From assembly GCA_003971905.1 (NCBI GenBank), contig RSEE01000019.1, positions 744,001 through 782,887 of the forward strand: DNA of 38,887 nt, read 5' to 3'. The first letter of the stretch is position 1. Every line of letters begins with the position of its first letter. The translations under genes were made by a program, and so were the position numbers. The notes below the pieces were generated by a model. It ran no database searches. It saw only the letters and a list, made by a program, of their open reading frames with translations, and was not told the DNA's origin. Positions 3,097 to 38,887 of this stretch are shown piece after piece. The stretch comes from Moniliella sp. 'wahieum' (Eukaryota).

Positions 3097-3102
3097 TTTT
3101 TT
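3097..3102 (+). terminator. RNA Pol III oligo-dT terminator
   Basis: T6 run 2 nt after the tRNA 3' end. Confidence 0.75.
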
Positions 3103-13794: not shown

Positions 13795-14209
13795 CGGCTG
13801 AAGCGCCCGTTGCTTGACGCCCTACTGGCCGGCCCATGCCGTAGTCATCGGCGGGAGTGGGGAGTGGGGAGTGCGGAGTGCGGCGCATTGGCCCGCTTCG
13901 CTTCCCCGCGTAAAAAGCACCCTCCATACCCCGATTCACCTCCCCTCCGGCCTCCTCTCCCTAGCCACTCGCTACTCCCCATCCTCAGATCAGCCCCCGT
14001 TCTAGCACCCCCATGGATTGTATACTTTCCGCATTGGAACATTCTTAATTGCACTTACTTCTCACATCGCACGACGGATGGAACCATCGTTGCACACTGC
14101 ACACTGCACTCGCACCCTCCCCTCCCCCGAGGGCCGCCGGGGAGCTTGTCGGCCCTGGTGTTAGCTGCTGTCGCTTCTGGGGCGCGCGCTCTCGAGCAGC
14201 GGCCTGGAG

Positions 14210-18344: not shown

Positions 18345-19080
18345 GGCGAATGGTGGGGGGGGTGGCGGGGGGGGGCGAGTACCTAAGATGCGAGGCTGCT
18401 AGCGCGTGAGCCGGCTGGCAGCGACTAGCTTGAATTTCCACTGGAAGCGGCCTCGAAAAAATCAATTGCACCGAGCGGGGTGCCACAACGAAATTGGAAA
18501 CGAACTCGATTTGAAAATGCAATGTTCAACAACTACTCGCAGACCAAGGCTCGCTACGACGCTGGGTATGGGCAAGTGAGGCGAAGCTTGTGAAAGGACA
18601 AGCAGCCCCCGGTGCGCATGGTGGATGGGTATTGTACGGTCCCCACGCGCCCATCCGTGCCCCCGTGCCCTGCCGAACAGTTGCCCCGCACCCCAGCATC
18701 AGATGCACACATGCGATGCATCAACAAGCACCAGCCGCTCAGACGCAACACGCCCGGTTTCTTCGCTTTGTCCCGCTGTCCCGGGGGGACGGACAGGGTG
18801 GGATCAGACCGGCCATGGTGAATGGAAGAAGCATGTGCCGATGATTTTGATGGCCGTCGGCGGCTGTGCGCTTCGCCTTGGTACGGCAGCGCGGCTACAA
18901 TGCTGGTTGGGCTCCAAATTATCGCGTTGGCTCTCCGGTGCTTAATTAAGCAACTAGGTTAAATGAGCGTCAAACCACCAAACCGTGCTGGCTTGTCCGG
19001 CGCCCACCATCTCCGGCTGCGCTTGGTACGATGGCCGTCGCATCCGCCGCGGCGGAAGGATCGACGTGCCTGCCGTGGAC

Positions 19081-21503: not shown

Positions 21504-21777
21504 GGCCGCGGCGGGTGAGGAGAGGAGATGGTGGTGAGGAGAGGAGATGGTGGTGCGATGGGGGCCACGCCGTGCGCTGCTAACCCCATGTCCATGCCGG
21601 GCAAAAGTAGCATGCGAATACACAGGGCACGGGCCTAGGCATTGCACCGATAGTGGAGACCAGCCGTGTTGGATCATCGATCCACTGCGGGGGGCCGCAT
21701 GGCCTGATGCGTGATGGCCGCGCTGGCTCCAGGAATAAGATCAAGACGCGCCCCCACGCAGTGCGCTTCCCATCGCC

Positions 21778-22650
21778 ATGGCTGTGCCCCCCTCGTGGAA
21801 GGATCTGAGCAAGGCCACCACCGACCTGCTCGGCAAGGACTACCCGCTCGGCAGCTCCACCCTCGACATCAAGTCTGTCGCCCCCAACGGCGTCGCCTTC
21901 CATGTCCAGGGCTCCCGTCTCAACCGCACCGGCGGCCTGGTTGGCGACCTGGAGCTCAAGGCGGCCAGCCGCGCCAAGGGACTGAGCGCGTCGACTGTCC
22001 TCACCTCGTCGAACCAAGTGCGGCAGACGCTCGAGGCGGAGAACTGCTTCGCCAAGGGCTTCAAGCTCGACTTTGTCGGCACCTTCCACCCCGACAAGCG
22101 CACCAAGACGGGTGTGATCAACACTACGTTCAAGCAGCCTCGTCTCCACACCCGCACCTCGATCGATCTTACCAAGGGCCCTCTTATTGCCCACGACAGC
22201 GTGGCTGGGCGGGACGGCTTGCTGGCTGGCTACTCGGCCGTGGTCAATGCGCAGACCAAGCAGCTGACCAACTACAGCGTTGGCGCTGGCATTTACGCGC
22301 CCGACTACTCGATCACATTGCTCAGCACCAACAAGCTAACCCAGTACGCCGCGTCCTATTATCACCGCATCAATGCCGATGTCGAGACGGGCGCGCGCAT
22401 CCTCTACGACGCATCCAAACCCGCGCCGGCGACCAAGCTGGAGCTGGGCAGCAAAGTCTACCTCGACAATGCCGCGTTCATCAAAGCCAAGATCAACACT
22501 GATGGCATCCTTGGCCTGGGGTACACCCAAGCGCTGCGTCCTGGCGTCAAGACAACGCTTGGCCTGGCACTGGACACGAAGGCCTTCTCGACAACCGAGA
22601 CAGCCACGCCAGCCCACAAAGTGGGCGCGGCGCTGTTCTTCGAGGCATGA
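21778..22650 (+). CDS. POR1: Mitochondrial outer membrane porin (VDAC)
   Basis: Intact 290-aa ORF: MAVPPSWKDLSKATTDLLGKDY...KAKINTDGILGLGYTQALRPGVKTTLG...HKVG...FEA. Confidence 0.96.
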   Translation: MAVPPSWKDLSKATTDLLGKDYPLGSSTLDIKSVAPNGVAFHVQGSRLNRTGGLVGDLELKAASRAKGLSASTVLTSSNQVRQTLEAENCFAKGFKLDFVGTFHPDKRTKTGVINTTFKQPRLHTRTSIDLTKGPLIAHDSVAGRDGLLAGYSAVVNAQTKQLTNYSVGAGIYAPDYSITLLSTNKLTQYAASYYHRINADVETGARILYDASKPAPATKLELGSKVYLDNAAFIKAKINTDGILGLGYTQALRPGVKTTLGLALDTKAFSTTETATPAHKVGAALFFEA

Positions 22651-22769
22651 CGAGTGCAGCTGTTAGTTTTGGCAAGAACGCTGGTGCTGTAAGCAATGCT
22701 GATTATCAATTACCCCTCAACCTGCTGGGTAGGCGCATGGGAGGTCTTGGAGGGGGAGGTGATGACAGG

Positions 22770-23560
22770 GGGTGGTAAAGTAGCCACCACCGGCAATCGG
22801 TGTCACTCCACCGTCAGCAATTGGCCAGACGTGCTGGCGCACAACAGCTGAGAACCCAGGCAAGCCGCACGAAAGACGGCGCGTACCAGGATATTGAGAG
22901 CTGCCATAAAGCCATCGCGTTTCAGAGTCAGTCGCAGAAGAGGGGCCGCTTTCCACACCACGGGAGCAGCTGCTTGCCGCGCGATACAGGCCCAAGTGGA
23001 GCCCACTTCGACATCTGCCCGAACACTAAACCAGCCAGATGGTTCTTCAGGCCCGCAAGGTGCTTCGCACACAGCACTTCGACCGCATCCGGCCCAAAAG
23101 TTCGCGTTCTGGGGACGCGGCATACGAGCCGCCCGCCCGGGCATGCGCTCTCTGACCTGGCGATGCACAAAGGTCAAATGATCGGAATGTTGACCCACTG
23201 TAGAGTCTTTCTTCATAGCTTGTGCTCAGGCCACCTCCCGATCCCGGGTCGGCCCTGAGGAAGGCGCAAACATCGGCCGAGGTGCTTTTCTGCAAGCCAG
23301 CCTTCAAGCAGAGCAAGCAGGTGAAACACGGCATGATCGTCGTGACGATCTAGGTAAATTCTTCCAAAGCGACCCGCCGCTTGGTTGAACTGAGGGAGGC
23401 CGCCCCCCTCGTGTTACTCGGCCGCCAGGGCGCAGCGCACTCCACCACTCGAATTGATCTGAATCGGAACGGCGGGTTTGTTTGCTTCGGCGGCCAGCTT
23501 GGGCTAGTACCGCCGACACCGACTGCCCGGCTTAGTGCGTGCGCCTGCGCTGCGACGGGC
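22770..23560 (-). mobile_element. Degenerate fragment (F) of CRE-clade non-LTR retrotransposon, N-terminal part up to the start of RT
   Basis: Colinear with 27820-28680 of copy A (shared GGTAAAGTAGCCACCAC, CACTCCACCGTCAG, CACAACAGCTGAG, GCAGCGCACTCCAC-like blocks). Reads DGGVTPIAGG vs DGGVRPIACG, and LCAKHLAG. Confidence 0.8.
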
Positions 23561-24329
23561 GTCCCTACCTGTCTCGTGCACGAGCATCACGGCAGGCCGC
23601 ACGATTTGGCACAGCCTCCAGGGAGCGGGCTAGGCAGAGAAGGCAGAGGTGGTGGTGAAAGATGGCAAAAGACCAGGCGGAGGGGGCGGGGTCAACTTAA
23701 CCGGGTCGGGGCGGGCTTGGCGCCAGCTACCGGCTGGGTTCGCCCTCACAGCATCGTTTCCATCGTGCGATTCTCCTCGGACAACGGAAACCACCTCCAT
23801 CGCCTAGACGAACCAATTGCGAGCCATCGCCTGCGCCCCGGCCAAGAAGCACCACTCGGCTTGCGACTCTGGCCACCACCCGCTGCCGCCTCTCGTCCTG
23901 CATCCGGTCCACATCCCGCGCAGTCACCGGATGGACATCCCGCTATGCACCATCACCTCGTGCCCCTGGCCCTTGGGCGTGGATCAGACAAAACGCAGTC
24001 AGGTATGGTGTGGATCTCATGCATTACAGACCGACCGGCCACTGAACGTACGAAGAAAACCGCAGGGAACCTGTGAGCGCTGCCCTAGTCAGAGTCAACC
24101 ATCAAGCAAACACACCTCACAAGCAAAGACAGCAGAGACAAAGGGTCGATGGGCACCCACCGCACCCCGTGCAGCCCACCAGGCCTGGGGGCGCGCCCAG
24201 CCCGCCATGCGGGCTGGCTGCTCTCGGCTCAGCTCTTGCAATCGGCGGCGTGATGATGAGGGGGATGACGAATTGACCTCCTTATCTTGGTGGGCCGAGA
24301 CGCCCTCACAGGCGTCCGGATGGCGCGGT

Positions 24330-25050
24330 TGACAGTTCGAGCCACTTGCACCAAATGTCAGTGCGTAAAGAGGCCCACCACACCGAGTTGAATGGGCTAT
24401 TCTGTAACGAAATGTCCAACCGACGCACAATCTGCCCCACTCTCCCTGAAACATGATTCCCATCTGGGAGAAGAGGGGGGAGGGCTCTAATATGCAGCAG
24501 TCGGATATTGGCCCCAAGCATCATGTTGGGGAGTGGCCAAGTGCAAAGCGATGCCGACCCACTCATCACATCTCTCGCATGAATGAAAAGCGGGTACTGG
24601 CTTGATCCACGTTCTTGCCCTGGTGCTCAGATATTCTTGTTGATCATCCGCATACCCGTGCCTGTACGTCCCGGCCTGTACAGGCGCGCTGGTCAGTACA
24701 TCATACCACAGGAAGTGTGGGTGGGGGTCGTCATCGGACGTGTAAAACCAATAGAGGTAATCACGGGCCCGTGTTGAGTAGGGTGCAGATGTTCGTTTTG
24801 GGCTTTAGTATGATCAAATGCAAGGAAGGTGGCCATTGCTAGCCATTGGCGCTCTTTGGCCGAAGGGGGTGTATGGATCTGGCTCTCAGGTGCATGGAGC
24901 TTTGCTAGTCTTGGCCACCAGCCCCGGAGTACCGTCCGCTGGCACTCGTGCGAGCCTCTTCTGCAGCCCATACAACAGTAGCGTACTTGGAGTAAAGTCA
25001 AAGCTGATCTCAGAATTCTTGCCGACACATTGGGGGTCTACCGTGTGCCG
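24330..25050 (-). mobile_element. Degenerate fragment (E) of CRE-like element, C-terminal endonuclease region
   Basis: Colinear with 30160-30585 (TCTGTAACGAA..CCGACGCACAAT, GTTGAGTAGGG vs ATTGAGTAGGG, TTTAGTATGA). Shares GGTCAGTACAT (WYDVLT) with copies A, B and D. Confidence 0.55.
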
Positions 25051-25094
25051 TCTTTTGCTCTGAATGCGGAGAAGGCACACACTGAACCAGGCGG

Positions 25095-25725
25095 ATGAAG
25101 CGCAGCCGCGCCCCCCGACATGTTCTACACGCCCATCCCGTACAACAGAGCAGCATCGAGCTGCATCTGCTCTTCACCAGCCGTAGAGGCCTTCGCTGCC
25201 GGCGCATCGGCAAGGGGCGTGAAGAATGCCCTGCCTTTGCCAGCACTCCCTGCATTGGCGCCTTAAAGGGCGGCCTGAGCGCGCGCACATTGCCTCTGGA
25301 GCTGCTTCCAGCTAATGTACAATGTCAGCAACTTGGGTTCCAGCAGAAGGGTATGAACACGTACATGCATTACCACCATCAAAGTTGCGGTACTCCATGG
25401 ATGGGCCGCCGTCAAGTTGATTTGTATTCCACCACGCAGCGTGTCGATATCGCTAACCCAGCCGCGCTCTCGATGCCAGTTCGGGTGCTGCATGAACAAG
25501 GATGGGGGGCAAGAAGCGGAGGCAAGGGGCGCGCGCCTCGTGACGCATCCGGTTTGGTGCGCAGCGAGAGGAGGGACACGAGGTGCCGCGACGGTCCCAA
25601 CGTGTTGGCTGGTGGCGAAGAAGCAAAAGCCGCCCAGACGCGACGAGATCAAATCCGGCACGGTGCCAGACGTATAGGCGGCGTGGTCGCACTCAGTGTG
25701 GATGGATACCTGAATTGCGACTGCT
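25095..25725 (-). repeat. Subtelomeric repeat family X, copy 1 (putative coding, unknown product)
   Basis: Homologous to 31120-31640 and 35240-35725; encodes GGIQINLTAAHPW...LLLEPKLLT...KAPMQGVLAKA. Confidence 0.75.
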
Positions 25726-25844
25726 TCGGCGCATCAAGCCAGATGGTTAACCGTCAACCCCGACGGGACCCTCAGCCGGTTGGCCATGCCCACCCCCCCC
25801 ATGAGCCACGCGCTTGCGCGGTTGGCGCAGCCGCGGACGAGTGC

Positions 25845-26060
25845 GAAGCGTGCCTTGCCTTTGCCAATGGTGGTGCCTATGGCCAAGGCACGCAGTGGAG
25901 GTACTCCCTCCTTGGGCGCCTTGCACGCCTGCTGAGGGACGCTGATGTGACAACGGCTGCACGAATGTGGGCGTTCCGACTGCGTCTGGCCAATGCGAAA
26001 TGTCAGCAACTTGGGTCACCTCAGAAGGATATGAACCACGTACAGGTATCCCCACCAGCA
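25845..26060 (-). repeat. Family X copy 2 (partial), just downstream of retroelement copy A
   Basis: GCCTTTGCCAA, GGCGCCTTGC and GTCAGCAACTTGGGT (26002) blocks shared with other X copies. Confidence 0.7.
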
Positions 26061-26189
26061 AAGATGGCGCGCTGGGCCCATCGTGGGTCGGTAAGCGCAA
26101 AAGAAGGGGTGCACCGCGGCGAAGCACATCCCGAAGGACAATCAATAGCGGCACAGTTCTTCATCCTGTTAGCCCCACACCCCCATATC

Positions 26190-28700
26190 TGACCAACATT
26201 CCTTGGGCTTGGGCGAGGCGATCTGCAGATGAGCAGCCCCTGCTTCATGTACCACATCGCGGCAGAAGCCGGTAACGATTCGATCCATGTCTTTATCTTG
26301 CACCTCAAGTTCTTGCAGCGCCTGTCCGTTGTTTCATCTGCAGCACCCCCCCGGTCAACGTTGGGGCGGGCCCTGGCACACCGGCCCCGCCACCATCCGA
26401 GTTGTCGTTGCCTGGCGGGGTGTTTAATCTGGTGCGGGGAATGCCTCTGCAGATAGCGGGACGATCGTTTGCTTATCCCATCGGCTATTCTCCACCATCT
26501 AGCGTATTCGTATCTGTTTAGTGCACTGGTCAGTACATTATACCACAGCAAGGCTTGGGTGGGTTCGTACCTGATGAATAGATAGTGGGTACATTGTGCA
26601 TGACAGTGTGAAAGAGCATTTGCACGTCTGGCACCAAGGCCGTGACAGTAAGGCAGGGGCGAGATAGGCGTGTGGGATCAACAGAAACGGACCGACGAGG
26701 TGCCACATCGCGTCAGGTGTGCCTTGATGGCAGCGTCAATCCTACCTTGGTCGCAACACCACCACGGGGGACAGCAGCGATATGAGCCCCGTCTCATCAG
26801 GGGTACGAGTAGTCCCCCTGCAATGGAAGGCACCATATCCAACCCCACCTTACCAGTAGCTGCGGATAGAACCAACCGGAATGCCACCACTGTTGGCACT
26901 CGAAAGCCTAAGCGACCTATACGGGCTGGCAAGGAGAAAAGAGTTCCGTTCCACTTCTGACCGTCCTCATCGCTCGGGTCCGCTCCCCGGATTGCCTTCA
27001 CCTCGCGCCAGAGCTGCTCGTCGATCAGGTAGAGCTGCTCCGCCAGGTCGTCTGTCCGCATCGAGCGGAGCAGGTGCCGCAGGTTCTGCTGCAGAGCCAC
27101 TCGCAACAAGAGCAAGCGGTCCTGCAGCGGCATCCCGTGCAAGGCGAGGTAAAGCGCTGCCTGTGCCTCCACCTTTGCCTGCAGAAAAGCGAGCCGAGCT
27201 GCTCTGGGACCCACGCACGAGCCGAGGAAGGTGCCGCCCTCCAGACGCAACTTTTGCGTCGAGACAGTCTTCGTCTTGCTCAGGTTGAGTTGCAGCCCCG
27301 TCTTGCTCTGCGCCACGACACGCGAGACCAGCTGCAACGCATTGGCGTTGCGGGACAATACATAAGTGTCGTCCAAATAGGACATCAGCAACCACTCGTC
27401 GCCCAGCGCGCGCTGAGCCTGCTCGAGCATGCTGCGGATGCCGACAAAGAAGAAGGCCCAAAGGGGTCGCCCTGCCTCACTCCCTGCTGGCTCAGGAGGG
27501 TTCCAAAGCCGCCTGCACCACCCAACATCAACTGGGTGCGCTTCCCATAAGCCCACCGGAAGAAAGTAAGGAGCTCGGGCGAATAGTCACTCACCGCTTG
27601 GGCCACCGCTGCCCTCTCGATCGAGTTGAACGCATTCTTAAAGTCCAACGACAGCACATAATTGAACTTGGCCCAAGCCGGGTCCCTCTCATCCCCACTA
27701 ACCAAACGATCCATAAGCCGCACAATCGGCTCCACCCCGCCCTTGGACTTGACGCCCAACTGGGGTGTGGAGCAGAGGAGTAACCACATCCAAATGAAGA
27801 AGAAGTGCCTTGGCAATACGCGGTAAAGTAGCCACCACAGGCGATCGGTCTCACTCCACCGTCAGGCTTCGCAAGTGCTGTCAGCCTACTGGTGCACAAC
27901 AGCTGAGCACCCGGGCACGTCCCATGAAACATGGCACACGCCATGGCTTTGAGAGCCGCTCTAAAGTCATCGTGCTTTAAAGCCAACTGGAGAAGAACCG
28001 ACCATCCGCCCACGTCCCGGGAGAAACTGCTTGCCGCGCGGTAGATGTCCTTATCATCCAACTCCAAAACCATTGGGCGCTCACCGGCGTCTGCCGCTGC
28101 GGTGTCGCCTGTTAAACTAGGCGGGGGCCCGCTCCGACATTTGCCGAACCACCACCAACCAGCGGGTTCTTTGGGCCTGCAGGATGCTTCGCACGCAGGG
28201 CCTCAACCGTTTCCGGCCCAAACCCCACCGCTGCATCCTGGGGACGCAGCGTACGAGCCGCACGCCCCAGCATCCCCTCTTTGACCTGGCGGTGTGCACG
28301 GTCAAATCATCGGAACGCTGGCACTCTGCAGAGCCCGTCTCCATAGTTGGCGGTCAAGCCACCTCCGGATACGCCTTCAGGGTGGCACACACGTCGGCCG
28401 AAGAGCCTCCCCCGCAAACCCGCCTTCGGCCGGGCAAACAGGTTGAACTCGGCGTAATCATCGGGATGATCCAAATACGCTCTTCCCAATCGACCGGCCG
28501 CCTCCTTGAACTGACGCCGCACCGTGTGCTGCCCGGCGGCGAGAGCACAGCGCACTCCACACTGGATCCGAATCGGGACTGCGGAACTGCCGGGTGGTCC
28601 GCTTCGGCTGCCAGATTGGGCTGAGCACAGCCGACACCGGCTGCATGGCGTAGCCCGTGCGCGCCTGAGCTGTTGGTGTTACGCTAGTTCCCACCGGCAT
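26190..28700 (-). mobile_element. CRE-clade (Cnl1/MoTeR/SLACS-like) non-LTR retrotransposon, most complete copy (A): RT, Zn knuckle and REL-type endonuclease region
   Basis: LRAKHPAG, LTALAKPDGGVRPIACG, QLGVKSKGGVEPIVR, LSLDFKNAFNSIER, QQGVRQGDPFGP, MSYLDDTY, FLGSCVG, LQQNLRHLLRS, LPARIGRLG, then WCQTC...HAQC and a REL-like tail. Frameshifted; may extend to ~28930. Confidence 0.9.
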
Positions 28701-28949
28701 AGTTCACGCGTATCACGGAAGGGGGCCACATGATTCGCCACGACCTCCAGACGGCGGGCAAGGCGGAGGAGAAGGTGGCGGTGGAAATGTGGAGAAGGAA
28801 TAAGTTGTCCATTGCCCGCCCCTCTCCATTCAAGAGTGCCTTGGACACATTCGTAGCCAAAGTAGCGCACGCAGTCCAGAACCTTCTGCGAATACACTCT
28901 TCTAGTCTTGCATTCTTCTACCAAAGTACCATAGTCCGACTCCTAGGCT

Positions 28950-29975
28950 GTGGTTTTGCAACGTGGTGAAAAAAACAGGGAAATCAAGCAAAGCACCTTG
29001 ATCCATGTCTTACAGGGGTGGCGCGTTTGGATGCAGTGATCCTTATACCTTAGCTTGCACAGCGGATGTGTAACCACAGGTGGAGTCACCCGCAGCGAAG
29101 ACCAAGGGAACAGAGCTACGCACTCGTTGCACAAGGATTGTACGCTGGTGCTTTTTTTTGGCCTCTATGTCGAACAAGGTGTTCATCTCCTTACACAGCG
29201 CGTGTGCCTCAGGACGGCGGCGAGCGGATGGCAAATACGACGTAAAATAGGCGCCGCGCGTCTTGTCTCCGAAGGTCGAAGGGGTTAGGCCGTTGGATAT
29301 GGATGGGCTCTTTGGAGCACCTGCGTTTGCCATCGCGATCTCAGTGCGGGTGATAGTGGCGTAGCAGCGCCCGACTCGCTGAGTGTTGTTGAATGGCTCG
29401 GGCTCTACCATAGTGGCCAGAATGTCCCGCAACCCAGTCATGACCCCGTGGCCAGGAATGTGGACGCTGGATTTGAGGGCACCACCGACCTCCAGCTGGG
29501 ATCGAGCGCTTCTGCTTTCTCATCAGCCAGGAGCCGAGCGATGTAGTCACAGGAGGCAGCAGCTTCGTATCCTGGCAGGCGAGCAAAACCGTCGTCGTTT
29601 CCTTGTGCCATGACGAGGGGCGGGCTCGAATGCCTCTCGTTGGCTGCCGATCACCCCCTGGTGCACCCATACGTTCGCCTCGCTGCCCAAGTCGATGCGT
29701 TGGCCTGTGGAGCAAAGCCAAGAGGAGAGAGCAAGACTGATCTGCCCAAAGCGACGGACATCGGGATGCCAACTTGGTCCTACCATTGACCGACCACATT
29801 GCCCCGATTGTCGCCCCGGTGACTTGCCTGGTGCCGTTGCTGCTCACCTACCCAGGGGAGTTTGGCCTGTGCCAGATACGTTTTCTCCGTCTCGAGCGAA
29901 ACAGATGGCGGAGGGGTTGCTGCAAGCACGAACCGCAAAATGAACAACCAGTGGGGCAACTGGAGGGATTTCAGG
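28950..29975 (-). mobile_element. 5'-truncated diverged CRE-like copy (C): RT C-terminus plus REL region
   Basis: CLQQPLRHLFRS (cf. LQQNLRHLLRS in copy A), then GHD, VEPEP, EAKKKH and VPLVFAAG, matching the REL endonuclease layout. Confidence 0.65.
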
Positions 29976-29989
29976 CAGGGGTAGCGAGT

Positions 29990-30940
29990 GGTTTGACCGC
30001 ATTGTTGACTCGCAAGAGCATCAGTCAGGTGATACAATCCCCAATGCAGAAGTCCAGGCTCTTGGCACGTTGCGTTTGCACACCTTGCACATTGTGTTTT
30101 TAAGTCGAGCCACGTTACACATTGGAACCTTTTCTTGTTCACTCGGGCCCTTCGCCTCGATCGCCTTCTGTAACGAATGTCTAGCCGACGCACAATTTGC
30201 CGCACTATCCCTTGGACTTGGTTCCCATTTGGGATTAGAGGGGAGAGGGTACTCGAATATGCAGGATATTGGAGCCAAGACGAGACGGAGCTTGGAGGCA
30301 TACGACTTGGCGGCTTCAATAGGAACCATTAACATCTCCCACATATATAAATGAAAGCGGGCACTGGTTTGATCCATGTGGTTGCACTAGTGCTCGGACA
30401 CTCTTGATGATCCATCTCCGTCTGCATACCTGTACGTTCCGGCCTGCACAAGCGCGTCGGTCAGTACATCATACCAGATGAAGTGTGAGTGGGGTCGTCG
30501 TCGTACATGTACAACAGTGGAGAGAATCATGGCCCTGGTATTGAGTAGGGTCGTGCGGATAATTGTTTTCGTCTTTAGTATGAATGACGCTGATGGTCGG
30601 CGGCAGTAAGGTTGTGATGAGGAATGCGTTCGCTGTGCGGAACGGCTTGTGCGTCGTGGAGGTCATTGCGGCCAGCACCGGGAGTGAGTTGGGGAAGAGC
30701 TTGGGGCTGCTGCTGGGACCAGGCCGAGAGTTCGACCCATTTTCGATCAGTTTTGGGCGGGATCAATGCGGGTTCCATATTAAGGAACACCCAGTCATAC
30801 TGGGTCAGGACCTGGCCGGTCTGTGCGGGCAGCGGAGGCGTGGGGGGCGCGACTTCGGGAGGGGAGAACAAAGAGACGCAATGGGGTCACAGCCCTGCTG
30901 CGAGTTCCGAGCAAAAGAGGCGAGGTGGAGGATTCATTTT
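29990..30940 (-). mobile_element. 5'-truncated CRE-like copy (D)
   Basis: EVAP, TTLLP and WYDVLTDAL segments; homologous to fragment E; GGTCAGTACAT at 30459. Confidence 0.55.
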
Positions 30941-31640
30941 GGCACGCTTGGGTTGGGTGTGTCGCCAGTCCCCTGACCAACAAGCGTGTCGAGCCAGGCA
31001 GTCACATCCATGATCAGTACCCAATCGAGTGAGGCTCATCGACACTATCCAATCCCGTCTCTCATCCTCTTCAGGGATCCAACAAGGGTAATGAGAGCAG
31101 CCACCCCCCCCGGACCTGCTCTACGCACCCGCCCCAACACAGCAGCATCGAGCAGGATCTGATCTTCGCCAGCCGTAGAGGCCTTCCCTGCTGGCACATC
31201 CGCAGGAGGCGGGAACCGTGCCTTTGCCAATATTCCCTGCATTGGCGCCTTGCGCAACTGGCTGGGGGACGTGGGTTAGGTTAGGGTTAGGGTTAGGGTG
31301 CGCACACATTGCTTCTGGTGCTCCGTCCAGCTAAGGTGAAACGTCAGCAACTTGGGTTCCAGCAGAAGGAAATGGACACGTACAGGCATCACCACCATCA
31401 AAGGTATGGCATCCCATGGGTGGGTCATCTCCAGGTTAATTTGCATTCCACCGCTGCGCATCGTGTCGAGCTCGGTAACGCAACCGCCTTCTCGCAGCCA
31501 GTTCGGGTACTGCATCGACAAGGATGGACAGCAAAAAGCGGTGCCCAGGGGCGTGCCCCCCCGTGAGCATGCATCCGGCTTGGCGGGTAGCGCAAGGATG
31601 AAGGAAGCAAGGACACGAGGCATAGCAGATTCCCAGCGTG
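30940..31640 (-). repeat. Family X copy 3, containing an internal telomere tract
   Basis: GGMQINLEMTHPW...LLLEPKLLT...KAPMQGILAKA...GSLKRM; homologous to 25095-25560 and 33170-33860. Confidence 0.78.
31273..31299 (+). repeat. Interstitial telomeric repeat GGG-TTAGG-(TTAGGG)3-T
   Basis: Read directly; same orientation as the terminal tract. Confidence 0.93.
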
Positions 31641-33169
31641 TTGGTCGTGGAGAGGCAAACCGGTCCCAAACGCAGCCAGGCCAGAATTGGCGCGGGGCCA
31701 GGCTTGGGCGGTGTGGCGGCGGCCAATGTGGAGGAACTTCTGCGCGCCAAGCGAGCGGCAAACGCACGTTAAACGTTAACCCCGCGGCGGCAGCCCTTTC
31801 CGCGCGTCCCGCGCAGAGGCGGCCGATTGCGGCCGATTGCGGGGCTGCTTGGCTTGCGTCCGCCGCCGCCTTTTGTGGTTGCGGCCACGAATATCACAAC
31901 CCAGCCCCCCTTCCCCTGTCATGAGCAGCAGCTCTGTGGACTTGCACTGCAGCAGGGAGCGCTGCCCACGCGGCAAGGCACCCGCCGTGTTGGCCAGGCA
32001 CAGGTCGCTTCCACGCAGGCCTGGTGCACAGCTGCTGAAGCAGGCGCGTGGAGCGCGTCGGACACTGGTTGCGCACGTCCCTTGCTGCGCAAAGCCCAAC
32101 CCGCGCCTTCCGTACAACAGAGGGGAGAGCAGTGCGCGCACTTGCCTTGCGAGGGCGGCGTCAAGCGAGCAGTGCTTGCACTTTCACCCCGCGTCCGCGT
32201 CGCATGCGGTGGATAAGAGGCATTGATGCAACCAGTTTCCTTGGGCTAGTACGCTCGTCCCAATTACTGCTGGTACTGTGTTCGGTCTGCGTGGGTTGTC
32301 AGTATTTCGCACCACAAGAGAGTACAAGAGAGCAGGGGCAACGTACCATCACCACAATGTGAGCCAGCAAGCTTGGTCGAAACGAATGTGCACATCAAGT
32401 GTTGCAGATAAACCGCCCATATCGGCAGCAGCTATCCTATCGTTGGTAACTGCGGAGACATCGCACCACATTTGTAGGGCATGGACAACGTTTACAGCCT
32501 GCACGCAAACAGTACCAGGGCTCATGAAGCTGCGCGCTGCACTGGAAGAATAGCGGAACCAGTCCCCAACATTGCAGTCACCACGCGGCCGTTTGGTGGC
32601 GAATGATGTTCCTTGGGCGCTGGGTTCAGAGGCGTCTGTGTGGCGGGATCGCTGCGATATATGTCGGGGAGTCGCAATGAATAGATGGACATGTTTGGGT
32701 CTCCCGGGATGCAATGCCAGCAACGAGTTCCCCAAGATGATGTGCCTTAGATGTGCACGTAACGCACGAGCAAGCACGAGCAAGACAGCTTAGATCGACT
32801 CGGGACAAAATAGTCAGGAGGCCATTAAGCCAGACCAGGTTGACGGGATGGCATACCCACCGCCTTGCTTCTTTTGGTTAGGACCTGCGGTACACATGCG
32901 CTCGCGGGAACAGTGATTGTTGCGGGACAGATAGAACGAGACAATTCGAGCGACTAACTGGACCGCCGCTCCAACGACGACTGCCGCGATGACAGCCGCT
33001 GTCTTTGCATGCACAAGGGCATGACGCAGAGGCCGTACCAGGAGCTCGCCGTGTGGGTACCCGGCCCAGCAGCACCGGGGGCCGAAGACAGGGGAGGGGA
33101 ACGAGGAAATGTAAATGATAAGGGAGGCGAATGATCAGGGAGTGGCAGACAGAAGATGCGAGGCTGAGA

Positions 33170-33870
33170 ATTCACTCCGACACGGCTTGGGTTTGGGGGT
33201 GGTCGACAGCCCACCCGAACGGCAAGCGCGGTGGACCAAGCGTCGCATCAATCCTCAATATCCAATCGAGAGTGAGGCTCATTGACGCTAACCACACCAT
33301 CTGCATCCTCTTCAGGGGTCCGAGATGCGGCGCCCATCATCCCCCTAAATGGTCATGACAGGCCGGGTCTCGTGCTCGGGAAGCGACAGAACTGCGGCTG
33401 GGCAGGCCTGCTCGGTCAGCAACGCGTTCTCTGGGAGCAGGCAAGCCTGTCGCCGCCGACCCCCATCTTCTTTCGTAGTGCTGTGACTGTGCCAAAGGCA
33501 ACGCACTGCGGCCGCTCGTCCCCCGCACCCGTTCTCCACGTCTGTACCGGCCCCGCATAACAAAACAGCATCGAACAGCACTTGCTCCTCGATAGCAACT
33601 CGATGGCTCCTTGTCGGCGGAAGCGCAGGGAGTGCGAAGCCGGACTTGCTCGGCTTGTGGTGCAGCGCCGATAGCCAACAGGGCAGCGCCGTGTCGGCGT
33701 ACCCTCATTGGCACGCTGAATGACTGGCTGCGGGGCGTTGACGTGACGAGTTGCAGGGCTGCATGATGCGTCCGGCCGATTGCCTCCGGTGCTGCGCTTA
33801 GCCGATATATATGTCAGCAACTTGGGTTACAACAGAAGCACAAGGACCACGTACAAGCATCGACATCCAC
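33170..33870 (-). repeat. Family X copy 4
   Basis: CCAATCGAG..GTGAGGCTCAT..CATCCTCTTCAGGG shared with 31020-31078; ACAGCATCGA; GTCAGCAACTTGGGT at 33813. Confidence 0.72.
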
Positions 33871-33989
33871 ACCAAGAAAGTTGGCGCGCTGGGCCCATCC
33901 TGGATCGGTAATCCCTGAGAGAAGTGTGCATCGCGACCATGCACATCATGAGGGACGATCAGTAGGACCAATTCTTTTCATCCTGTTGG

Positions 33990-34900
33990 TCTCATACCAC
34001 CAGGCCGCCCCCCATTCCTCAGGCGTGAGCGAAACCATCTCCGGATGCGCGTCTCCTTCTTCATCGATACAACGACGCGGTATAAGCTGGCAATGGTTTG
34101 GTTCGCGTCTTTATAATGAACCTCAAGCTCTCTTGCAAAGCGTGCCCATTGTGTTCATTGGGGACGATCCCAGGCCAGGTGGACGGCGGGACCTGGCAAC
34201 CCCCCCGCCACCATCCGAGGTTGCCGCTGCCCGTCGTGACGTTTAATTTGGTGCGAAGGGACGCCTCTGCAGATGGCGGGCTGACCACTTACTTGCTTCC
34301 ATCGGCTATTCGGCTCCGGCAGGCATATTTGTACCTGTTTAGCGAGCTGGTCAGTACATCGCCGCAGAGCAAGACATGGGTGCTTTCGTACCAGAGTAAC
34401 ACATAGTCGGTAGAGCGGTATCAACGCCGCGCAAGACAGCGTAAAAAGGATTCGCACGTCTAGCAATTCGGCGTGGCCGTAAGGCCGAAAGGAAGGTGGC
34501 GGCGCGATAGGCTTTTGCGAATGTAACGCAACAGAAGCAGAAGAACGAGATGCCACACCGCGTCACAGTGTTCCTTGATGGAAGCGTAACCCCCGTCTTG
34601 GTCGCAACACCCACCATGGGGGACATGAACGATACGAGCCCAGCCTCGCTCGTCGATGGAGGAAGCAGCGGTACGTGCAGCCTCACAGCAATGGAGGGCC
34701 CGATATCCAATCCCACCTTACCAGCGCAACTGCTAGCAAAAGGGAATGTTGTCATTGCTGGCACCCGCGTTGCAAAGGTAAAGCTCATACCCATGCCAGG
34801 AATACTCCAAAGGTTGATGTGGCAAAAACTTGTTGCTTCACCCTACTCCGACGAGCCCAAACGCACGCACAACTGTTCAGAGGTAATGGGTCCACTTCTC
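33990..34900 (-). mobile_element. 5'-truncated copy (B) of the same retroelement family as A
   Basis: GKVGLDIGPSIA vs GKVGLDMVPSIA in copy A; CTTGGTCGCAACAC, GGTCAGTACAT, CATCGGCTATTC and CCCCGCCACCATCCGAG blocks colinear with 26380-26900. Confidence 0.8.
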
Positions 34901-35239
34901 CTGGGCACGACAGTTGCCCTCGAGCCGGTTTGTGGAAAATGGTTACTCATGGGAACCCAAGCACGGCCGATTTGGGGGGACAACTAAAATCGATACAAGC
35001 GGGCTGTCGGCGCTCCATCGCGGAGTGAGGTTGGCGCGCTGCCGTTGGGCAATGTGGCAAGCAACGCAAATGGGAGGGCGGCAAATACCAGCAAATGAAT
35101 CATCCGCGAGTGGTGCTGCGTTTGGTTGGGGCGCTGCTGGCTCTGAGAGATGTGCATGATGCATGTTGCTGCCCAGCAAAGGGAAGAGGGCGATCCATAC
35201 TGCCGCCCTCGTTGCCACCACACGCACAGTCCAGCTGTC

Positions 35240-35725
35240 AGGACCCCACGGATGGGCCATCTTCAGGTTGATTTGCATTCCGCCACGCACGATGTCGACC
35301 GCGCTTGGAACAGAAGCGGCCGATTCGGGAAGAACACGATTCACGTTTGCAGGCAAGGCCCGATTCGTCGTACCCACGACTCTAGGTGGGCGGGTGAAGG
35401 AACAGCGTGTCCTGCTCGGCATGCTGCTGCAGACCATCGCCTAGGCCTGGGACGCGTCTAGGCCTGCGTCCCAGCCGCCCCTCGTATCGAGCGCTGCATG
35501 GACAAGGATGAGCAGCAAGAAGCGGGGCCCCGCCCCCATGAGCACGCATCCGCCTTGGTGCACAGCGAGAGGAGAAAAAGCTAGGACACGAGCTGCAGCG
35601 GCGGCCCCACAGTGCTGGTTGGTGGCGCAGAAGCAAAAGCCGCGCAGACGCGACGAGATTAAATTCGGCGCGGAGCTAGGGTTGTAGGTGGTGGCCGCAG
35701 CCGATGTAGATGAATTGCAACTGCG
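35240..35725 (-). repeat. Family X copy 5 (5' portion)
   Basis: NLISSRLRGFCF and RGGMQINLKMAHPW; GAAGCAAAAGCCGC-CAGACGCGACGAGAT shared with ~25620-25650. Confidence 0.72.
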
Positions 35726-38700
35726 TGGGCGCGCCAACCGACGCGGCGGCCGCAACGCGACGACGCAACGCTCGCCGCGAAACCGAGCGGCCCAGCGCTG
35801 TGCCGAGGGGGACACCTGCACCCATATCGGCACCACACTCCCGCGACTGGACCCTCGCCGCGCGTGGCTTCCCGACCCACGTACCCCCTCCTTGGCTGGC
35901 CCGTCCTTACCGGCCGGACCTGGCCACGAACCAACCCACACTGCCGATTCTTGGGGACAGCAGTAGGCGTTTGCCACGCTCGGCAGCACAGCGCACCAAG
36001 CAAGCGGCGCCTTGTCTACCGACCCGCCAATCCGGAACGCAGCGTACCTAGTGCGCCTTTTGGTCGCGCATCCTGCTTCCCCTCGCGTCTCGTCTCCCCC
36101 CTCTCGCCTTCACCGCCGTCGTCCCCGCTGTCCCCGCCGCAGCAGCCATTGGGCTACCCCCTTGGCCGTTGTCCCGCCCAGCACCATGCTCTGCAGCTGC
36201 TTCGCGTCGAGGCCATGTCCATGGCGTTGCCCTGCGAGCTGCTCCTCGGACTCCGCGAGGGCGCCGAGCGCGGAGGTGGTCGCTTGTTGTTGTTCGTCGG
36301 GGTGCTCGCTGTGTGTCGCCTAACATCTCTCGTTGCGGCCAAGAAAAACTACCAACCTAGTCTCTCCCTTTCGCACAAGCAGCAGTCGCTCCAGACCCGC
36401 ACTGCAGACGGAATCGCTGCAGACGGCGTTAAAGGCGTCCGCTGTGTTGCCCAGAAGCAGCTGGCTATCCCGTAGGGGCGCCCGGCCGCTAAAAGACCCG
36501 GATGCAGGTCCGACATCCCCTTCGCACGTCCCTGCCCGGCCAAATGGCAATCAGGATCGTCCGAGCAGACCCCACCGAAGGGGGAGTGGAGCGGGTACTT
36601 TCTTCGCCACAGTAGCTGCTCATCGTCAAGTGGGGCAGTGCGTCCATGGCCACCGCGTACCCTCGTATGCCTGGAAAAGGGGTATTGATCCAGGCAGGTT
36701 CCTCGTTGCTTGAGTACGCGCGTCCCAGTTGCTTATGGTGCGGTGTTTGATCTGCTTTGGTTGTTAGTAACTTGGACTGTACAAGAGAATGTAGGTAACG
36801 TACCGCCATCACAACCTGGGCCAGCAGGGCAGCGACAGTCATAAACCGAACACCAGTGCCGATGGCAGCCTTGCCACGCCCTGTATCCCAGTCAAGAGGA
36901 ACATTCGTAGCTGGAGCAAGGTAGAAGAGGCGGCAAGGGATGAACCACTGAGGTGCTCGTCAACACTGAACCATGCATAGTGGTCCAGTCAAAGGAGGCA
37001 ACTCTATCATTCAAGGGGCTGCTCCTTCGCGGGGTGGGCAGCGCCTTCCATGGCAACAAACAACTTGGCGGTCCAGTCCTCGCATCTTGCGAAGCTTGGT
37101 CAAACTGTTAACGCAAAGTGAATCCAGTAAGTATATCATCCCCTCCGGTTCTTTCTCTAGTGGGGCTGCGCCACGACCCTGAAAAGACCATGATCGTATA
37201 CGTACGTTCTTGGCCGCCAGATACGCCAGTTGGTCCTCCGTATCATTCCAGTTGTTGTAACACGTTGTGGTCCCCGCCCCCCCGTGGTGTGCTGACCAAG
37301 ACGGGAGTTGAGGTACAACATTGAGATCAACAGTGTATCGGGTAAAGAGCGTGCATCATCTTGCGCAGTTTTGAGAGTTGGGATGGTGCCTCATCTGCTC
37401 ATGAGACATGTGCGGGTTAGCACCTCTTCCTCCTCGCGCTCTCTCTCTCCTTTCACCCCTTTCGTCGCACCTGTTACCGCGGCGGGGTGCCAGAAGGAAG
37501 AAGAGCATCTCAACGGATGGACGTCATCGAACGTACCGATACAGTCGAGCCAGGACAGCAACTGTGGCAGAGATTGTGGTTTTGATCGTGCTTCTTGAGA
37601 TCATCCAGAGTCGCTAGGGCTGGGGAGAGCCGTTCGTCCAACCACTGCCGATTCGGGGCATAGTCATCGGCACTCAGTTGCGCTAGACAGAGCTGGGCCA
37701 GGGCGGTATTAGGGCCGATGGGGACTCATAAAAGGGCTGCAGCGGCCATTTGCCACCACTTTGATGCCAGAGTCGCTCGTACGCAGTGGCAAACCGTTTC
37801 TTGGCGGTTGCAGGTAGATAGGCCGGCGATGGACAGTGGCGAGACAATAACATCGAGGGTCGCGTTGGTCGGCGCCTATGATATTGACTCGTATGTGATG
37901 TTCCACAAGGGCATCCCCGCTAGCATGGTGCCCCAGGCGAAGTTGGTGAACATGGCACTGTTTTCTTTGCCCTGGGAAGGAGCTTCGCCAGGGGCTAGAC
38001 GGGGGGGGATGGACCAGAGGCTGCCTCGAGCAGGCCCCCGCCCGGAGCTGGTCGCCTCGCCCTCGCTGCCTGCTGCCGGCCTCCTCGCCCCCCATCCACC
38101 CCCCTCGCTTCCCACTCCGTTCCCCTCCTTCCTTGCCCGACTCCAACCCATTTTCGGATCCACCAGGCAAGGGGACCAAGGCCGTCTCCGCAACGGCAGC
38201 CCTGCGCACAAAGACAGCGTTGAGCGCTGCCCTCTGCGTCGACCGGCGCAACGGCCCCATTGACGCCGACGACCGCGATCGTCCCTGTCGCTGCGTCTTG
38301 ACCGCCCCAAAAGACTCCCCCTCCGACTCGGAGGGGGGTAGTAAACACGACCACGTTTCTTTCCAGATGAACCACGCGCGCTTGTCCGGGACGCATCCAA
38401 TACGGCAGCCGCTGCTGCCACTCCGATTCGCTCCGACCCGTTCGGCAATGTCTTCTGCGCTGCATTCACTTGCTCAGGGGTACCCATTTCTTGCGAGCAA
38501 TCGCCCTGATCGACGTATCAACCAGGTCTTGGCATTAGTCGCATCGGTGCCCGGGGATGCGGCACAGGTCGCACTTCTTGCCCCCGGTCACCGCTTGTTG
38601 GCAGACCGCTGCCGCATACTCGAAGCGGGAGCACCGCTCGCATTGGCGAGGGCACATCGTCATCGTACAAACCTTCTTGCCCCGCCGTAGATGCCTGGCC

Positions 38701-38859
38701 CTTCCTTAGGCTGTGGTTTCGCAACGCAGTAGATAGGGAGAAGTACATCCCACAAGGCACATCATATCTGCACTTGGACAGTCAGCGATGAGCAACGAGG
38801 CAATAATGGGGACTTACTAGTTACTCCAAGCAGGGCATGCGTTAAGCCGATGAGTAAGC

Positions 38860-38887
38860 TTAGGGTTAGGGTTTGGGTTAGGGTTAG
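38860..38887 (+). repeat. Telomere repeat tract (TTAGGG)n with one TTTGGG variant; probable chromosome end
   Basis: TTAGGG TTAGGG TTTGGG TTAGGG TTAG running to the end of the window. Confidence 0.9.

Follow-up and report, generated by a model that had tools for sequence, protein, structure and literature searches.

A probable fossil array of telomere-targeted non-LTR retrotransposons at one chromosome end of a basidiomycete fungus

The chromosome end and its element fragments

We analysed a window of 38,887 nucleotides, meaning the whole stretch of DNA considered here. It closes with TTAGGG repeats, read directly, and thus reaches a chromosome end of a basidiomycete fungus (Table 1). The last host gene encodes a mitochondrial porin whose best named relatives are porins of Ustilaginomycotina (50-52% identity), the nearest named taxa to this host, which has a G+C content of about 60%. 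Host genes are continuous as far as 22650, and profile searches of positions 1-22650 returned no match to the element family or to its 3' block. The porin stop codon (22648-22650) sets the proximal limit of an array of decayed element fragments that spans 22763-38859, which is roughly 16 kb from the last gene to the telomere. A preliminary description of this DNA had closed the array at 34900, which is too short, as fragments continue to 38859. About 4 kb of the array lack any match.

Table 1. Features of the chromosome end, from centromere-proximal to telomeric.
Feature	Position	Strand	Evidence and details
Last host gene, mitochondrial porin/VDAC	21739..22650	+	Pfam Porin_3, E 1.4e-56
Fragment F, 5' part of type-I element, 3'-truncated	22763..23675	-	70% nucleotide identity to A 27811-28802
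Stretch inside proximal duplicated block	23676..24398	.	no match in tile scan or pairwise nhmmer
Unit X1, copy of 30165-31270	24399..25280	-	73-79% nucleotide identity to 30165-30586 and 31094-31251; L block at the distal end, about 25055-25280; A 26520-26585 also similar, over a short stretch (E 1.2e-5)
Short unit E2	25281..25958	-	type-II 3' end 25281-25763 with conserved 3' block, and L block 25814-25958; 25281-25572 78% identical to 31300-31598; 3' block profile E 9e-36, exact motif match at 25322; L similarity 25191-25388 to 25814-26067
Copy A, near-full-length type-I element, pseudogene	25959..28847	-	family profile, tblastn, read-through translation
Copy A 3' UTR	25959-26020	-	
Copy A stop codon	26021-26023	-	preceded by '...TWFISF'
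Copy A C-terminal third, unrecognisable	26024-26903	-	in-frame TGA at 26678-26680
Copy A RT and thumb	26903-28067	-	spread over three different frames
Copy A N-terminal region	28154-28528	-	
Unit Y, type-III 3' fragment	28847..29964	-	29745-29964 similar to A 26916-27132, E 3.6e-10; 3' UTR, stop codon 28943-28945 preceded by 'RCKTTA'; C-terminal coding part at 29088-29351 ('KKKHQRT..VPLVFAAGD'); remnant of the thumb at 29745-29964
Unit X2 (lower boundary uncertain)	29965..31270	-	colinear with X1; distal end is L block 31081-31270, last bases on minus strand 5'-ACGTCCCCCAGCC; 30448-30629 similar to A 26517-26671, E 1.9e-4
Interstitial telomere tract GGGTTAGG(TTAGGG)3	31273..31298	+	read directly
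Unit E4a, type-II 3' fragment	31299..32250	-	colinear with E2 and 35163-36829; 3' block profile E 5.1e-35, motif match at 31341
Unit E4b	32255..33770	-	weak 3' block 32261-32355 (profile E 0.03), interior without assignment, 5' region 33141-33327, L block 33478-33770; similarities 32247-32372 to 36712-36829 (E 1.4e-13), 30903-31086 to 33141-33327 (E 8.8e-18), 25055-25349 to 33478-33838 (E 5.3e-13)
Fragment B, type-I 3' fragment (3' UTR and C-terminal third), 5'-truncated	33775..34769	-	72% nucleotide identity to A 25959-26904; 3' block profile E 1.4e-28, motif match at 33811
Unit E6a, type-II 3' fragment	35114 (approximate)..36715	-	colinear with E4a: 31349-31499 to 35163-35321, 31491-31754 to 35481-35741, 31804-32372 to 36261-36829
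Unit E6b	36720..38610	-	weak 3' block 36727-36816, profile E 0.0039; remaining 1.8 kb (36830-38610) without protein or DNA match
Terminal unit, 250-nt type-III 3' fragment	38610..38859	-	28847-28998 similar to 38616-38762, E 6.6e-4; 3' UTR, stop codon 38706-38708, about 50 C-terminal codons
Terminal telomere repeats	38860..38887	+	TTAGGG TTAGGG TTTGGG TTAGGG TTAG, read directly

Among the fragments of the window, copy A alone carries a statistically clear reverse transcriptase (RT; E 8e-59 to 5e-12). It matches a family profile of about 980 positions between positions 141 and 664 (E 8.3e-59, 4.8e-42, 2e-24, 4.6e-12 and 3.4e-4), shows 38-46% identity to five relatives by tblastn and has 333 database relatives, of which 171 reach E<=1e-10. 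Pfam RVT_1 was passed by all 12 long relatives scanned. The best solved relative is R2 (E 1.7e-36), with L1 ORF2p far behind (E 6.4e-16). The complete element appears to have measured about 3-3.8 kb. Fragment F matches the profile weakly (positions 302-339, E 8.4e-5; 146-180, E 0.046), and the other fragments are linked to the element only through DNA homology to A or a shared 3' block; the match of unit Y to profile positions 834-919 has an E-value of only 5.9. Short unit E2, which lacks the RT, may be an internally deleted derivative similar to MoTeR2.

The relatives of copy A have C2H2 zinc fingers at the N-terminus, then an RT, and at the C-terminus a restriction-like (REL) endonuclease. 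The REL signature C-x2-C-x5-9-H-x3-4-C-x8-11-RH[DNE], followed by E, R.D and D/E, occurs in 82 of 153 family proteins and agrees with the published consensus of MoTeR1, FoTeR and SLACS/CRE (excerpts of PMC12857005). A C-terminal profile built from 83 relatives detected no REL in any copy of the window (best E 0.66), and the C-terminal third of copy A matched nothing in this search. Fragment B retains a 'C-x9-RHD' remnant, ICRGVPSHQIKRHD, at 34233-34274, with E-values at noise level. From this remnant and the architecture of the relatives, we infer that the element of the window also encoded a REL. Its initial designation as an RT+REL element thus stands for the RT of copy A and for the relatives, but not for a REL detectable in the window or for a clear RT beyond copy A.

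Uniform orientation and growth by block duplication

A repeat search of the window gave nine direct families and no inverted pairs. Within the array, self-matches are direct in 16/16 cases (blastn) and in 26/26 merged cases (nhmmer tile scan), with none inverted, and tblastn and family profile searches place the coding sense on the minus strand. Since the window ends in TTAGGG, the 3' ends of the elements point to the centromere and their 5' ends to the telomere. The uniform polarity proposed in the preliminary description hence holds for all repeats between 22763 and 38859. The 3' block directly follows the stop codon of copy A, and its motif ATGTCAGCAACTTGGGTT occurs four times, always on the plus strand, against 0.02 expected. 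Three sequence types no longer align outside this block, yet they share one orientation.

The tile scan also revealed that blocks containing several elements were duplicated: 22763-25763 matches 27811-31785, 25795-26848 matches 33585-34716, and 31349-32372 matches 35163-36829. The array was later enlarged by duplication of blocks spanning several junctions, and much of its growth was not repeated insertion. Because several fragments are copies of such blocks, they are not independent insertions, and few independent events underlie the uniform orientation; a strict count may give only three to five. The earlier view of at least six fragments from two or three diverged subfamilies is right in that the array contains three or more diverged sequence types, but several of the fragments are block copies. 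The statement that the family repeatedly extended the chromosome end overstates the number of events, since junction-spanning duplications explain much of the array. All copies are pseudogenes that differ from one another by 25-30%, and they show no RIP-like bias (ts/tv 1.2-1.5).

At the proximal edge of the array, fragment F extends from the N-terminal region as far as the first RT motif, 'PIADGGVTPIAGGGYF', and is 3'-truncated 113 nt from the porin stop codon; this edge is a rearrangement breakpoint inside an element, not an insertion junction. Most copies had been described as retaining only their 3' portion, which fits several of them (e.g. B and the terminal unit) but not F, which keeps the 5' part.

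Telomere repeats at junctions and beside relatives

The tract at 31273-31298 is the sole tandem telomere tract of the window besides the terminus. It lies between the conserved 5' end of X2 (its L block) and the 3' end of E4a, whose terminus '...GCAATGTGTGCGCA' adjoins it exactly and has no poly(A). Telomere repeats are kept at one of about six junctions, the rest showing either nothing or unrelated short spacers. At the chromosome end, the truncated 5' end of the terminal unit is capped by TTAGGG repeats. Both the C-terminal codons and the stop block of type III reappear there, 150 nt from the terminal repeats: a 20-nt block at 28944 in unit Y is found again exactly at 38707 (two matches against zero expected). 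The geometry of junction and terminus is as expected for reverse transcription primed from the G-rich strand, an interpretation that these observations support, and the same geometry is published for MoTeR and FoTeR (excerpts of PMC7367193 and PMC12857005). Young copies with a 3' junction on TTAGGG had been proposed as a check. The 3' end of E4a does adjoin such repeats, but every copy in the window is dead and 25-30% diverged, and hence there is no sign of present activity.

Metagenome relatives provide an independent view of this polarity. Counting tracts within 600 nt of the ORF end, CCCTAACCC-like (CCCTAA-type) tracts lie 136-502 nt downstream of 6/10 ORF ends in the near clade, the other four having no telomere-like tract; the reverse orientation was seen in 0/10, and in the distant clade such tracts follow 0/24 ORF ends. 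Two loci outside this count (L003 and L016) show the same polarity by eye. Two or more tandem CCCTAA occur in 5/79 metagenome loci, with 8/8 tracts on the sense strand, and all five loci belong to the 21 of the near clade. Telomere repeats flank L004 and L007 on either side, with the contig end at the 5' side. The trees place copy A within the near clade, as they do the telomere-flanked loci L004, L007 and L009 (FastTree support 100, IQ-TREE SH-aLRT 99); no starred set in the trees contains copy A. Its closest tree relatives come without flanking DNA, so the telomere association of its own sub-branch is by bracketing only. The proposal of a telomere-targeting family draws on the polarity of the relatives (6/10 against 0/10), the tract at the 3' end of E4a and the capped 3' fragment, but the retention of telomere repeats at only one of about six junctions weighs against it. 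Taken as a whole, the preliminary description is partly confirmed in its observation and partly supported in its interpretation.

Origin of the array and known systems

The array is probably a fossil head-to-tail stack of a telomere-targeted non-LTR retrotransposon, at the one chromosome end examined. Judging from the geometry and from published relatives, element RNA would be reverse-transcribed from the 3'-OH of the G-rich telomeric strand. Priming from this 3'-OH would place the new copy on the C-strand; its 3' end, which lacks poly(A), would adjoin TTAGGG repeats and its 5' end would face outward. Truncated 5' ends may then result from erosion or from synthesis that stops early, and telomerase would re-cap them. 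The 3' truncation of F is not a product of target-primed synthesis and counts against this explanation. The array would document former activity and not a working system of telomere maintenance.

The same arrangement could arise as ordinary subtelomeric junk, if a few non-LTR fragments without telomere targeting were multiplied by tandem segmental duplication and merely inherited their orientation. The three pairs of duplicated junction-spanning blocks, their similar divergence (70-75% identity in all pairs) and the breakpoint within an element at the proximal edge are in line with this. We nevertheless consider it quite improbable, given that three types unalignable outside the 3' block have a single orientation, that a telomere tract lies exactly at a 3' terminus, that the repeats at the terminus cap a 3' fragment oriented as predicted, and that independent metagenome relatives have CCCTAA-type tracts after 6/10 ORF ends and never in reverse. 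It is barely credible that repeat fragments were mis-joined beside a telomere read during assembly: the terminal tract has only 28 nt and includes one TTTGGG, but differences of 25-30% between copies are far too large for repeat collapse or mis-joining, and host genes are unbroken up to 22650.

Assignment to the CRE clade is a separate matter and is tentative. That the telomere-targeted, REL-bearing element falls outside it, in R2, NeSL, R4, Hero or an unnamed early-branching clade, is unlikely, though it has some arguments in its favour: the trees hold no named CRE, SLACS, Cnl1 or MoTeR sequence, the nearest solved structure is R2, and the motif CCHC...RHD...E...R/KPD...D/E is common to all REL-bearing clades (excerpts of PMC12857005). 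Against it, the same source reports MoTeR1, FoTeR and Cnl1 with SLACS, CRE1/2 and CZAR, apart from R2, and a sub-branch of the relatives (L004, P0059, P0086 and P0116) has the 'RAD-x12-D/E' spacing printed there for MoTeR1 and FoTeR. Moreover, telomere-adjacent elements of Malassezia, from the subphylum of the host's nearest named relatives, match Cnl1 by BLASTP (excerpts of PMC10055393).

By analogy, the family appears to match MoTeR, FoTeR, Cnl1 and the telomere elements of Malassezia in architecture and behaviour, and elements of this type are known from other fungi. MoTeR1 and MoTeR2 of Pyricularia (Magnaporthe) oryzae are non-LTR elements with RT and REL-ENDO that form head-to-tail telomeric arrays. 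Their 5' ends are always nearest the chromosome end, neighbouring copies are spaced by (TTAGGG)n tracts whose length varies between half a repeat and over 20, and telomere repeats re-cap 5'-truncated copies; autonomous and defective elements have a short 3' terminal sequence in common, break-induced events lengthen and shorten the arrays, and internalised relics are found (excerpts of PMC7367193). The array of the window has the same polarity, keeps one telomere tract and contains duplicated blocks; its units share a 3' block of roughly 100 nt, and short ones have both termini but no RT. This likeness to MoTeR1 is one of architecture and arrangement, not of sequence comparison. Unlike MoTeR, which measures 5 kb and has an ascomycete host, the element belongs to a basidiomycete, is apparently about 3-3.8 kb long, has long-dead copies and shows no TTCGGG/(TTTGGG)n run at a 5' terminus in the window.

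The ORF of FoTeR, from Fusarium oxysporum, spans about 1,150-1,184 aa and combines C2H2 fingers at the N-terminus with RT and REL (consensus C-x2-C-x6-H-x3-C-x9-RHD...E...RAD-x12-E). Its 3' ends precede 3-7 TAACCC units, and intact copies exist beside decayed ones (excerpts of PMC12857005). The relatives of copy A have a similar pattern, C-x2-C-x7-H-x3-C-x9-RH[DEN], and 3' CCCTAA tracts, but the motif strings ARHNAVN and ARHDKIV occur in 0/153 family proteins, and the window shows neither a telomere-linked helicase nor RIP-like bias. The Malassezia telomere-adjacent non-LTR proteins, which match Cnl1 of Cryptococcus (excerpts of PMC10055393), have 1,479-1,648 aa against the roughly 980 positions of our family profile. 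Cnl1 is reported active, whereas the window contains pseudogenes. SLACS, CRE1/2 and CZAR of trypanosomatids represent the CRE clade in the strict sense and have a C-terminal REL with the same motif order (excerpts of PMC12857005). The likeness of these site-specific non-LTR elements to our family is one of architecture and motif order, and their targets are spliced-leader genes instead of telomeres. In HeT-A, TART and TAHRE of Drosophila, end-directed reverse transcription builds head-to-tail arrays at the chromosome ends, and the 3' ends face the centromere. They belong to the Jockey clade, carry poly(A) tails and replace telomerase, whereas here the array is dead and TTAGGG still caps the chromosome end.

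Extent and orientation of the array

Up to position 22650 the window holds ordinary fungal genes, which we identified by a Pfam scan of stop-to-stop open reading frames (ORFs): an HSF-type factor, Rot1, mitochondrial L36, an MFS transporter, a mitochondrial carrier and a porin. The top named matches of the porin are from Ustilaginomycotina (50–52% identity), with unnamed sequences reaching up to 72–82%. Hence, the host is a basidiomycete to which no named taxon is closely related. Two minor observations concern this region. The minus-strand open frame at 8453–10747 (765 codons, about 70% G+C) contains the Rot1 chaperone domain in its last ~160 codons only, and its long upstream part is probably open merely on account of the high G+C content. 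A minus-strand ORF that lies immediately upstream of the porin gene (21036–21740) shows a weak match to Amidohydro_2 (E 3e-4, under the cut-off).

The window ends in TTAGGG repeats, and the plus strand is therefore the G-rich strand running out to the chromosome end. One unit of this tract, at 38872–38877, is the variant TTTGGG, which may reflect slippage of telomerase or a sequencing error; there are only 4.7 repeats at this place. TTTGGG is also described as a variant repeat at the 5' ends of MoTeR elements (PMC7367193).

An array of decayed non-LTR fragments adjoins these repeats and occupies 22763–38859, i.e. it runs 4 kb beyond position 34900, where the preliminary description had let it end. 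The co-orientation proposed there was borne out, since every self-match in the array is direct. The repeat search gave 9 direct families and no inverted pair, blastn 16 direct matches out of 16, and nhmmer with 107 overlapping tiles 26 out of 26 after merging. The coding sense of the reverse transcriptase (RT) in the array is the minus strand, which turns the 5' ends towards the chromosome end. Searches of 1–22650 with the element-family profile and with the 3' block of the elements returned no match. Pairs within the array are 70–75% identical, which indicates that the copies are old, and their transition/transversion ratios (1.2–1.5) reveal no RIP-like bias. About 4 kb of the array is without any match (23676–24398, 32372–33140, 34770–35113 and 36830–38610), and protein profile searches of 28500–38860 reached only E 0.063 at best. 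An RT-like similarity between 27636–27796 and 30097–30261 (E 1.5e-5) is out of line with the neighbouring colinear matches.

Features of the array and its borders, with strand and basis where reported
Feature	Position	Strand	Basis
Porin, last host gene (stop codon excluded)	21739–22647		Pfam scan
Fragment F, 5' part of a type I element	22763–23675	-	
Copy A, near-full-length type I pseudogene	25959–28847	-	
Unit Y, type III 3' fragment	28847–29964	-	
Fragment B, type I 3' fragment	33775–34769	-	
RT-less units with L block and 3' block	25281–25958, ~29965–31270, 32255–33770		
Conserved 3' block, ~100 nt	25281, 25959, 31300, 33775		motif and profile matches
Weaker 3' blocks	32261 (E 0.03), 36727 (E 0.004)		profile
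Third 3' end type (codons 'RCKTTA', stop codon, UTR)	28944, 38707		2 matches against 0 expected
Interstitial tract GGGTTAGG(TTAGGG)3, flanked directly by a 3' terminus on one side and by the neighbouring unit's end on the other	31273–31298		direct reading
Terminal repeats TTAGGG TTAGGG TTTGGG TTAGGG TTAG	38860–38887	+	direct reading

Unit ends and block duplication

The core of the 3' block, ATGTCAGCAACTTGGGTT, occurs four times, always on the plus strand, when 0.02 occurrences are expected. In copy A this block comes directly after the stop codon ('...TWFISF*', compared with '...RARFFSF*' in relatives), so that the 3' UTR is about 60 nt long and there is no poly(A). A run of nine T at 29151–29159 was considered as a poly(A) tail and rejected, because it encodes KKK within the C-terminal coding sequence of unit Y. 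At one junction of the array, a 3' end without poly(A) lies on telomere repeats: the interstitial tract there is the sole tandem telomere tract in 38.9 kb besides the terminus. Such repeats are absent at the remaining junctions, where they were either lost or never present. Only 150 nt separate the distal match of the third type of 3' end from the terminal repeats, which means that the chromosome ends in a telomerase-capped, 5'-truncated 3' fragment of 250 nt. The string 'MTMCPRQCERC' near 38690 was discarded as an ORF start, as it is a reading of the 3' UTR.

On the other side of the units, a shared block of 150–290 nt (the L block) stands left of four junctions, with its end at an identical nucleotide in all four. 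We infer that it is the true 5' terminus. If so, the RT-less units that have both the L block and the 3' block look like internally deleted derivatives. They recall MoTeR2, described as having only the termini in common with MoTeR1 (PMC7367193). We also considered 25959–31270 as one full-length element of 5.3 kb, and excluded it because unit Y, which lies inside, brings in separate C-terminal codons with a stop codon, and a remnant of a thumb.

The nhmmer tiles reveal three block pairs whose colinearity extends over junctions (22763–25763 with 27811–31785, 25795–26848 with 33585–34716, and 31349–32372 with 35163–36829). Much of the array therefore stems from the duplication of multi-element blocks, a process described in MoTeR arrays (PMC7367193). 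The idea that the elements repeatedly extended the chromosome end implies more events than the array calls for, given what block duplication accounts for: independent insertions may be as few as three to five. Fragment F breaks off within the first RT motif, at a distance of 113 nt from the stop codon of the porin gene, and what bounds the array there is the margin of a block that was duplicated or captured, rather than a junction made by insertion.

Relatives, telomere polarity and clade placement

The RT frame of copy A (26024–27586, minus strand) spans 521 codons with a single TGA and reaches a family-like stop codon. A search of 1.84 billion representatives with its read-through retrieved 333 relatives, and 171 of these had E ≤ 1e-10. 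These proteins are about 850–1,300 amino acids long, and all 12 that were scanned passed RVT_1. In the protein atlas the clusters are labelled only 'hypothetical protein' or RVT_1. The relatives have paired C2H2-like fingers at the N-terminus and, at the C-terminus, C-x2-C-x7-H-x3-C-x9-RH[DEN], followed by E-P, R-x-D and D/E. This signature of a restriction-like endonuclease (REL) is present in 82 of the 153 relatives, the others being mostly fragments. Hence, as seen in the relatives, the endonuclease of the family is of the REL type, not the APE type, and lies C-terminal to the RT. The signature agrees with the consensus given for MoTeR1, FoTeR and SLACS/CRE in section 16 of PMC12857005. The motif strings of FoTeR were found in none of the 153 relatives.

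The scan of metagenome contigs identified 79 loci. FastTree, run on the RT region, places copy A in a clade of 100 of the 148 rows (support 100), and a smaller IQ-TREE run places it in a clade that comprises 43 of the 52 rows (SH-aLRT 99). In both trees this near clade stands apart from a clade of more distant metagenome loci, the far clade. At least two tandem CCCTAA units occur at five loci, all among the 21 near-clade loci, and all eight tracts are on the sense strand of the element. Ten near-clade ORF ends have a flank of 150 nt or more. The telomere association with fixed polarity claimed for these elements was recovered: six of the ten lead into a CCCTAA-type, CCCTAACCC-like tract 136–502 nt downstream, none has the reverse orientation and four have neither. 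Far-clade ORF ends with a telomere-like tract amount to 0 of 24. Outside the near-clade count, loci L003 and L016 show 'GATGTAA(A)CCCCCTAAC...' directly past the stop codon. At L008 the 3' terminus is followed by three CCCTAA units and then by a 5'-truncated copy, and at L004 and L007 telomere repeats are present on both sides, with the contig end at the 5' side. The telomere-flanked L004, L007 and L009 bracket copy A in the trees; the close relatives of copy A itself are known without flanks.

Some loci have further peculiarities. Right after the terminal CCCTAA repeats of L007 (positions 1–60), the 5' side opens with tandem units of ~21 nt ('ACCCGCTTCCCCGTCA..TT'), which recall the upstream VNTRs of FoTeR and the variant repeats of MoTeR. 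In L003 (2940–3045) and L001 (60–780), several very short units stand in a row; they terminate in 'GTAA(A)CCCCCTAAC', and each carries some 1.5 telomere-like repeats (CCCCCTAA). These units resemble the outcome of recurrent, extreme 5' truncation or of additions that were aborted. The far clade, which is well supported, comprises 58 metagenome loci (L020–L079), with RT proteins of ~1,000–1,400 amino acids at 25–32% identity to the query family.

Which clade do these elements belong to? When a profile of 40 relatives was compared with solved structures, R2 was the best match (E 1.7e-36, two matched stretches), with L1 ORF2p far behind (6.4e-16). Elements of the R2 clade insert in 28S rDNA and carry an N-terminal zinc finger and Myb. 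In contrast, the elements of the window sit at a telomere, the window contains no rDNA, and the match to R2 is distant for a profile of 971 positions. Telomere repeats at junctions are also found in the Penelope-like Athena and Coprina, whose RT is of the Penelope type and which have no endonuclease. The RT of the present family matches instead the non-LTR structures of R2 and L1 and Pfam RVT_1, and the relatives carry a REL. Assignment to the CRE clade would rest on architecture, on behaviour and on the published grouping, the trees themselves being built of unnamed relatives; section 18 of PMC12857005 groups MoTeR1, FoTeR and Cnl1 with SLACS/CRE/CZAR.

Telomere-targeted RT+REL elements are described in Pyricularia (MoTeR, PMC7367193) and in Fusarium (FoTeR, PMC12857005), and likewise in Cryptococcus (Cnl1) and Malassezia, where M. 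slooffiae has interstitial telomere repeats between copies (PMC10055393). The array is a dead addition to these fungal elements. The kind of element is well known, and our literature search found no report of it for a lineage like the present host. The fungi with such retrotransposons thereby gain a basidiomycete lineage whose porin shares 50–52% identity with that of its closest named relatives, in Ustilaginomycotina. Viewed alongside the metagenome relatives, this makes the polarity from 3' end to CCCTAA family-wide, and no peculiarity of Pyricularia, Fusarium or Cryptococcus. The array also illustrates ageing: junction telomere tracts were lost and multi-element blocks duplicated, giving a 16-kb subtelomere that telomerase repeats still cap.

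Reverse transcriptase and C-terminal third of copy A

Several RT+REL fragments had been counted in the window. The co-oriented fragments are real, but with the family profile (54 near-full-length relatives) an RT is demonstrable in copy A only. It matches profile positions 141–664 in four frame pieces (E 8.3e-59, 4.8e-42, 2e-24, 4.6e-12, 3.4e-4), with a frame broken by at least three frameshifts and one stop. Fragment F matches weakly (E 8.4e-5 and 0.046), and outside A and F the whole window gave no match below E 0.2. Of the minus-strand ORFs, 2 of 91 have weak matches to RVT_1, both under the Pfam cut-off and both inside copy A. No RT was found in 124 further ORFs (plus strand downstream of 19557; both strands of 1–20000).

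The REL domain attributed to the window copies was not recovered, and its signature is seen in the relatives instead. The profile of C-terminal REL domains reached only E 0.66 at best over the array. The last 294 codons of copy A score 0 bits against a profile of 83 C-terminal domains, while its RT scores 361.5 bits against the near-clade RT profile, compared with 356–420 in the five intact relatives printed. The ratio of C-terminal to RT bits is 0.26–0.65 in 73 intact relatives and 0.18–1.11 in nine pseudogene loci. The C-terminal frame of copy A could not be placed by hmmalign. Fragment B, 72% identical to the C-terminal part of A, retains 'ICRGVPSHQIKRHD' (C-x9-RHD). This spot takes 9 of the 14 best tblastn HSPs, at E-values (0.002–0.06) no better than those of wrong-strand matches. 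The core reading of the preliminary description stands; the extent of the array, the number of events and the REL domain in the window had to be revised, and the name CRE clade is to be taken as provisional.

Most of this is expected biology to specialists, and only the contrast between the preserved RT of copy A and its unrecognizable C-terminal domain is unusual. Two readings fit. The REL may have decayed in a lineage that was still transposing and would have primed directly on exposed chromosome ends. Alternatively, copy A may combine a young RT part with an old stump resembling B, a young RNA having been reverse-transcribed by homology from the eroded end of an old fragment. Priming on such a stump would explain why A passes from its well-preserved to its unrecognizable part (26903) just where its homology to B stops (26904 in A, 34769 in B). 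That type I elements were endonuclease-independent end-adders, by either reading, seems to us rather improbable. If true, either would make them the equivalent, among LINEs, of the telomeric Penelope-like elements that lack an endonuclease.

Cys and His abound in the C-terminal stretch of copy A ('YRCCPPWWCC', 'YCHGLG..SHCHAQC'). We considered 'YCHGLG...SHCHAQC' together with 'WYN' as the CCHC and RHD motifs and rejected this, because 'ICRGVPSHQIKRHD' in B places the motif about 100 nt further 3'.
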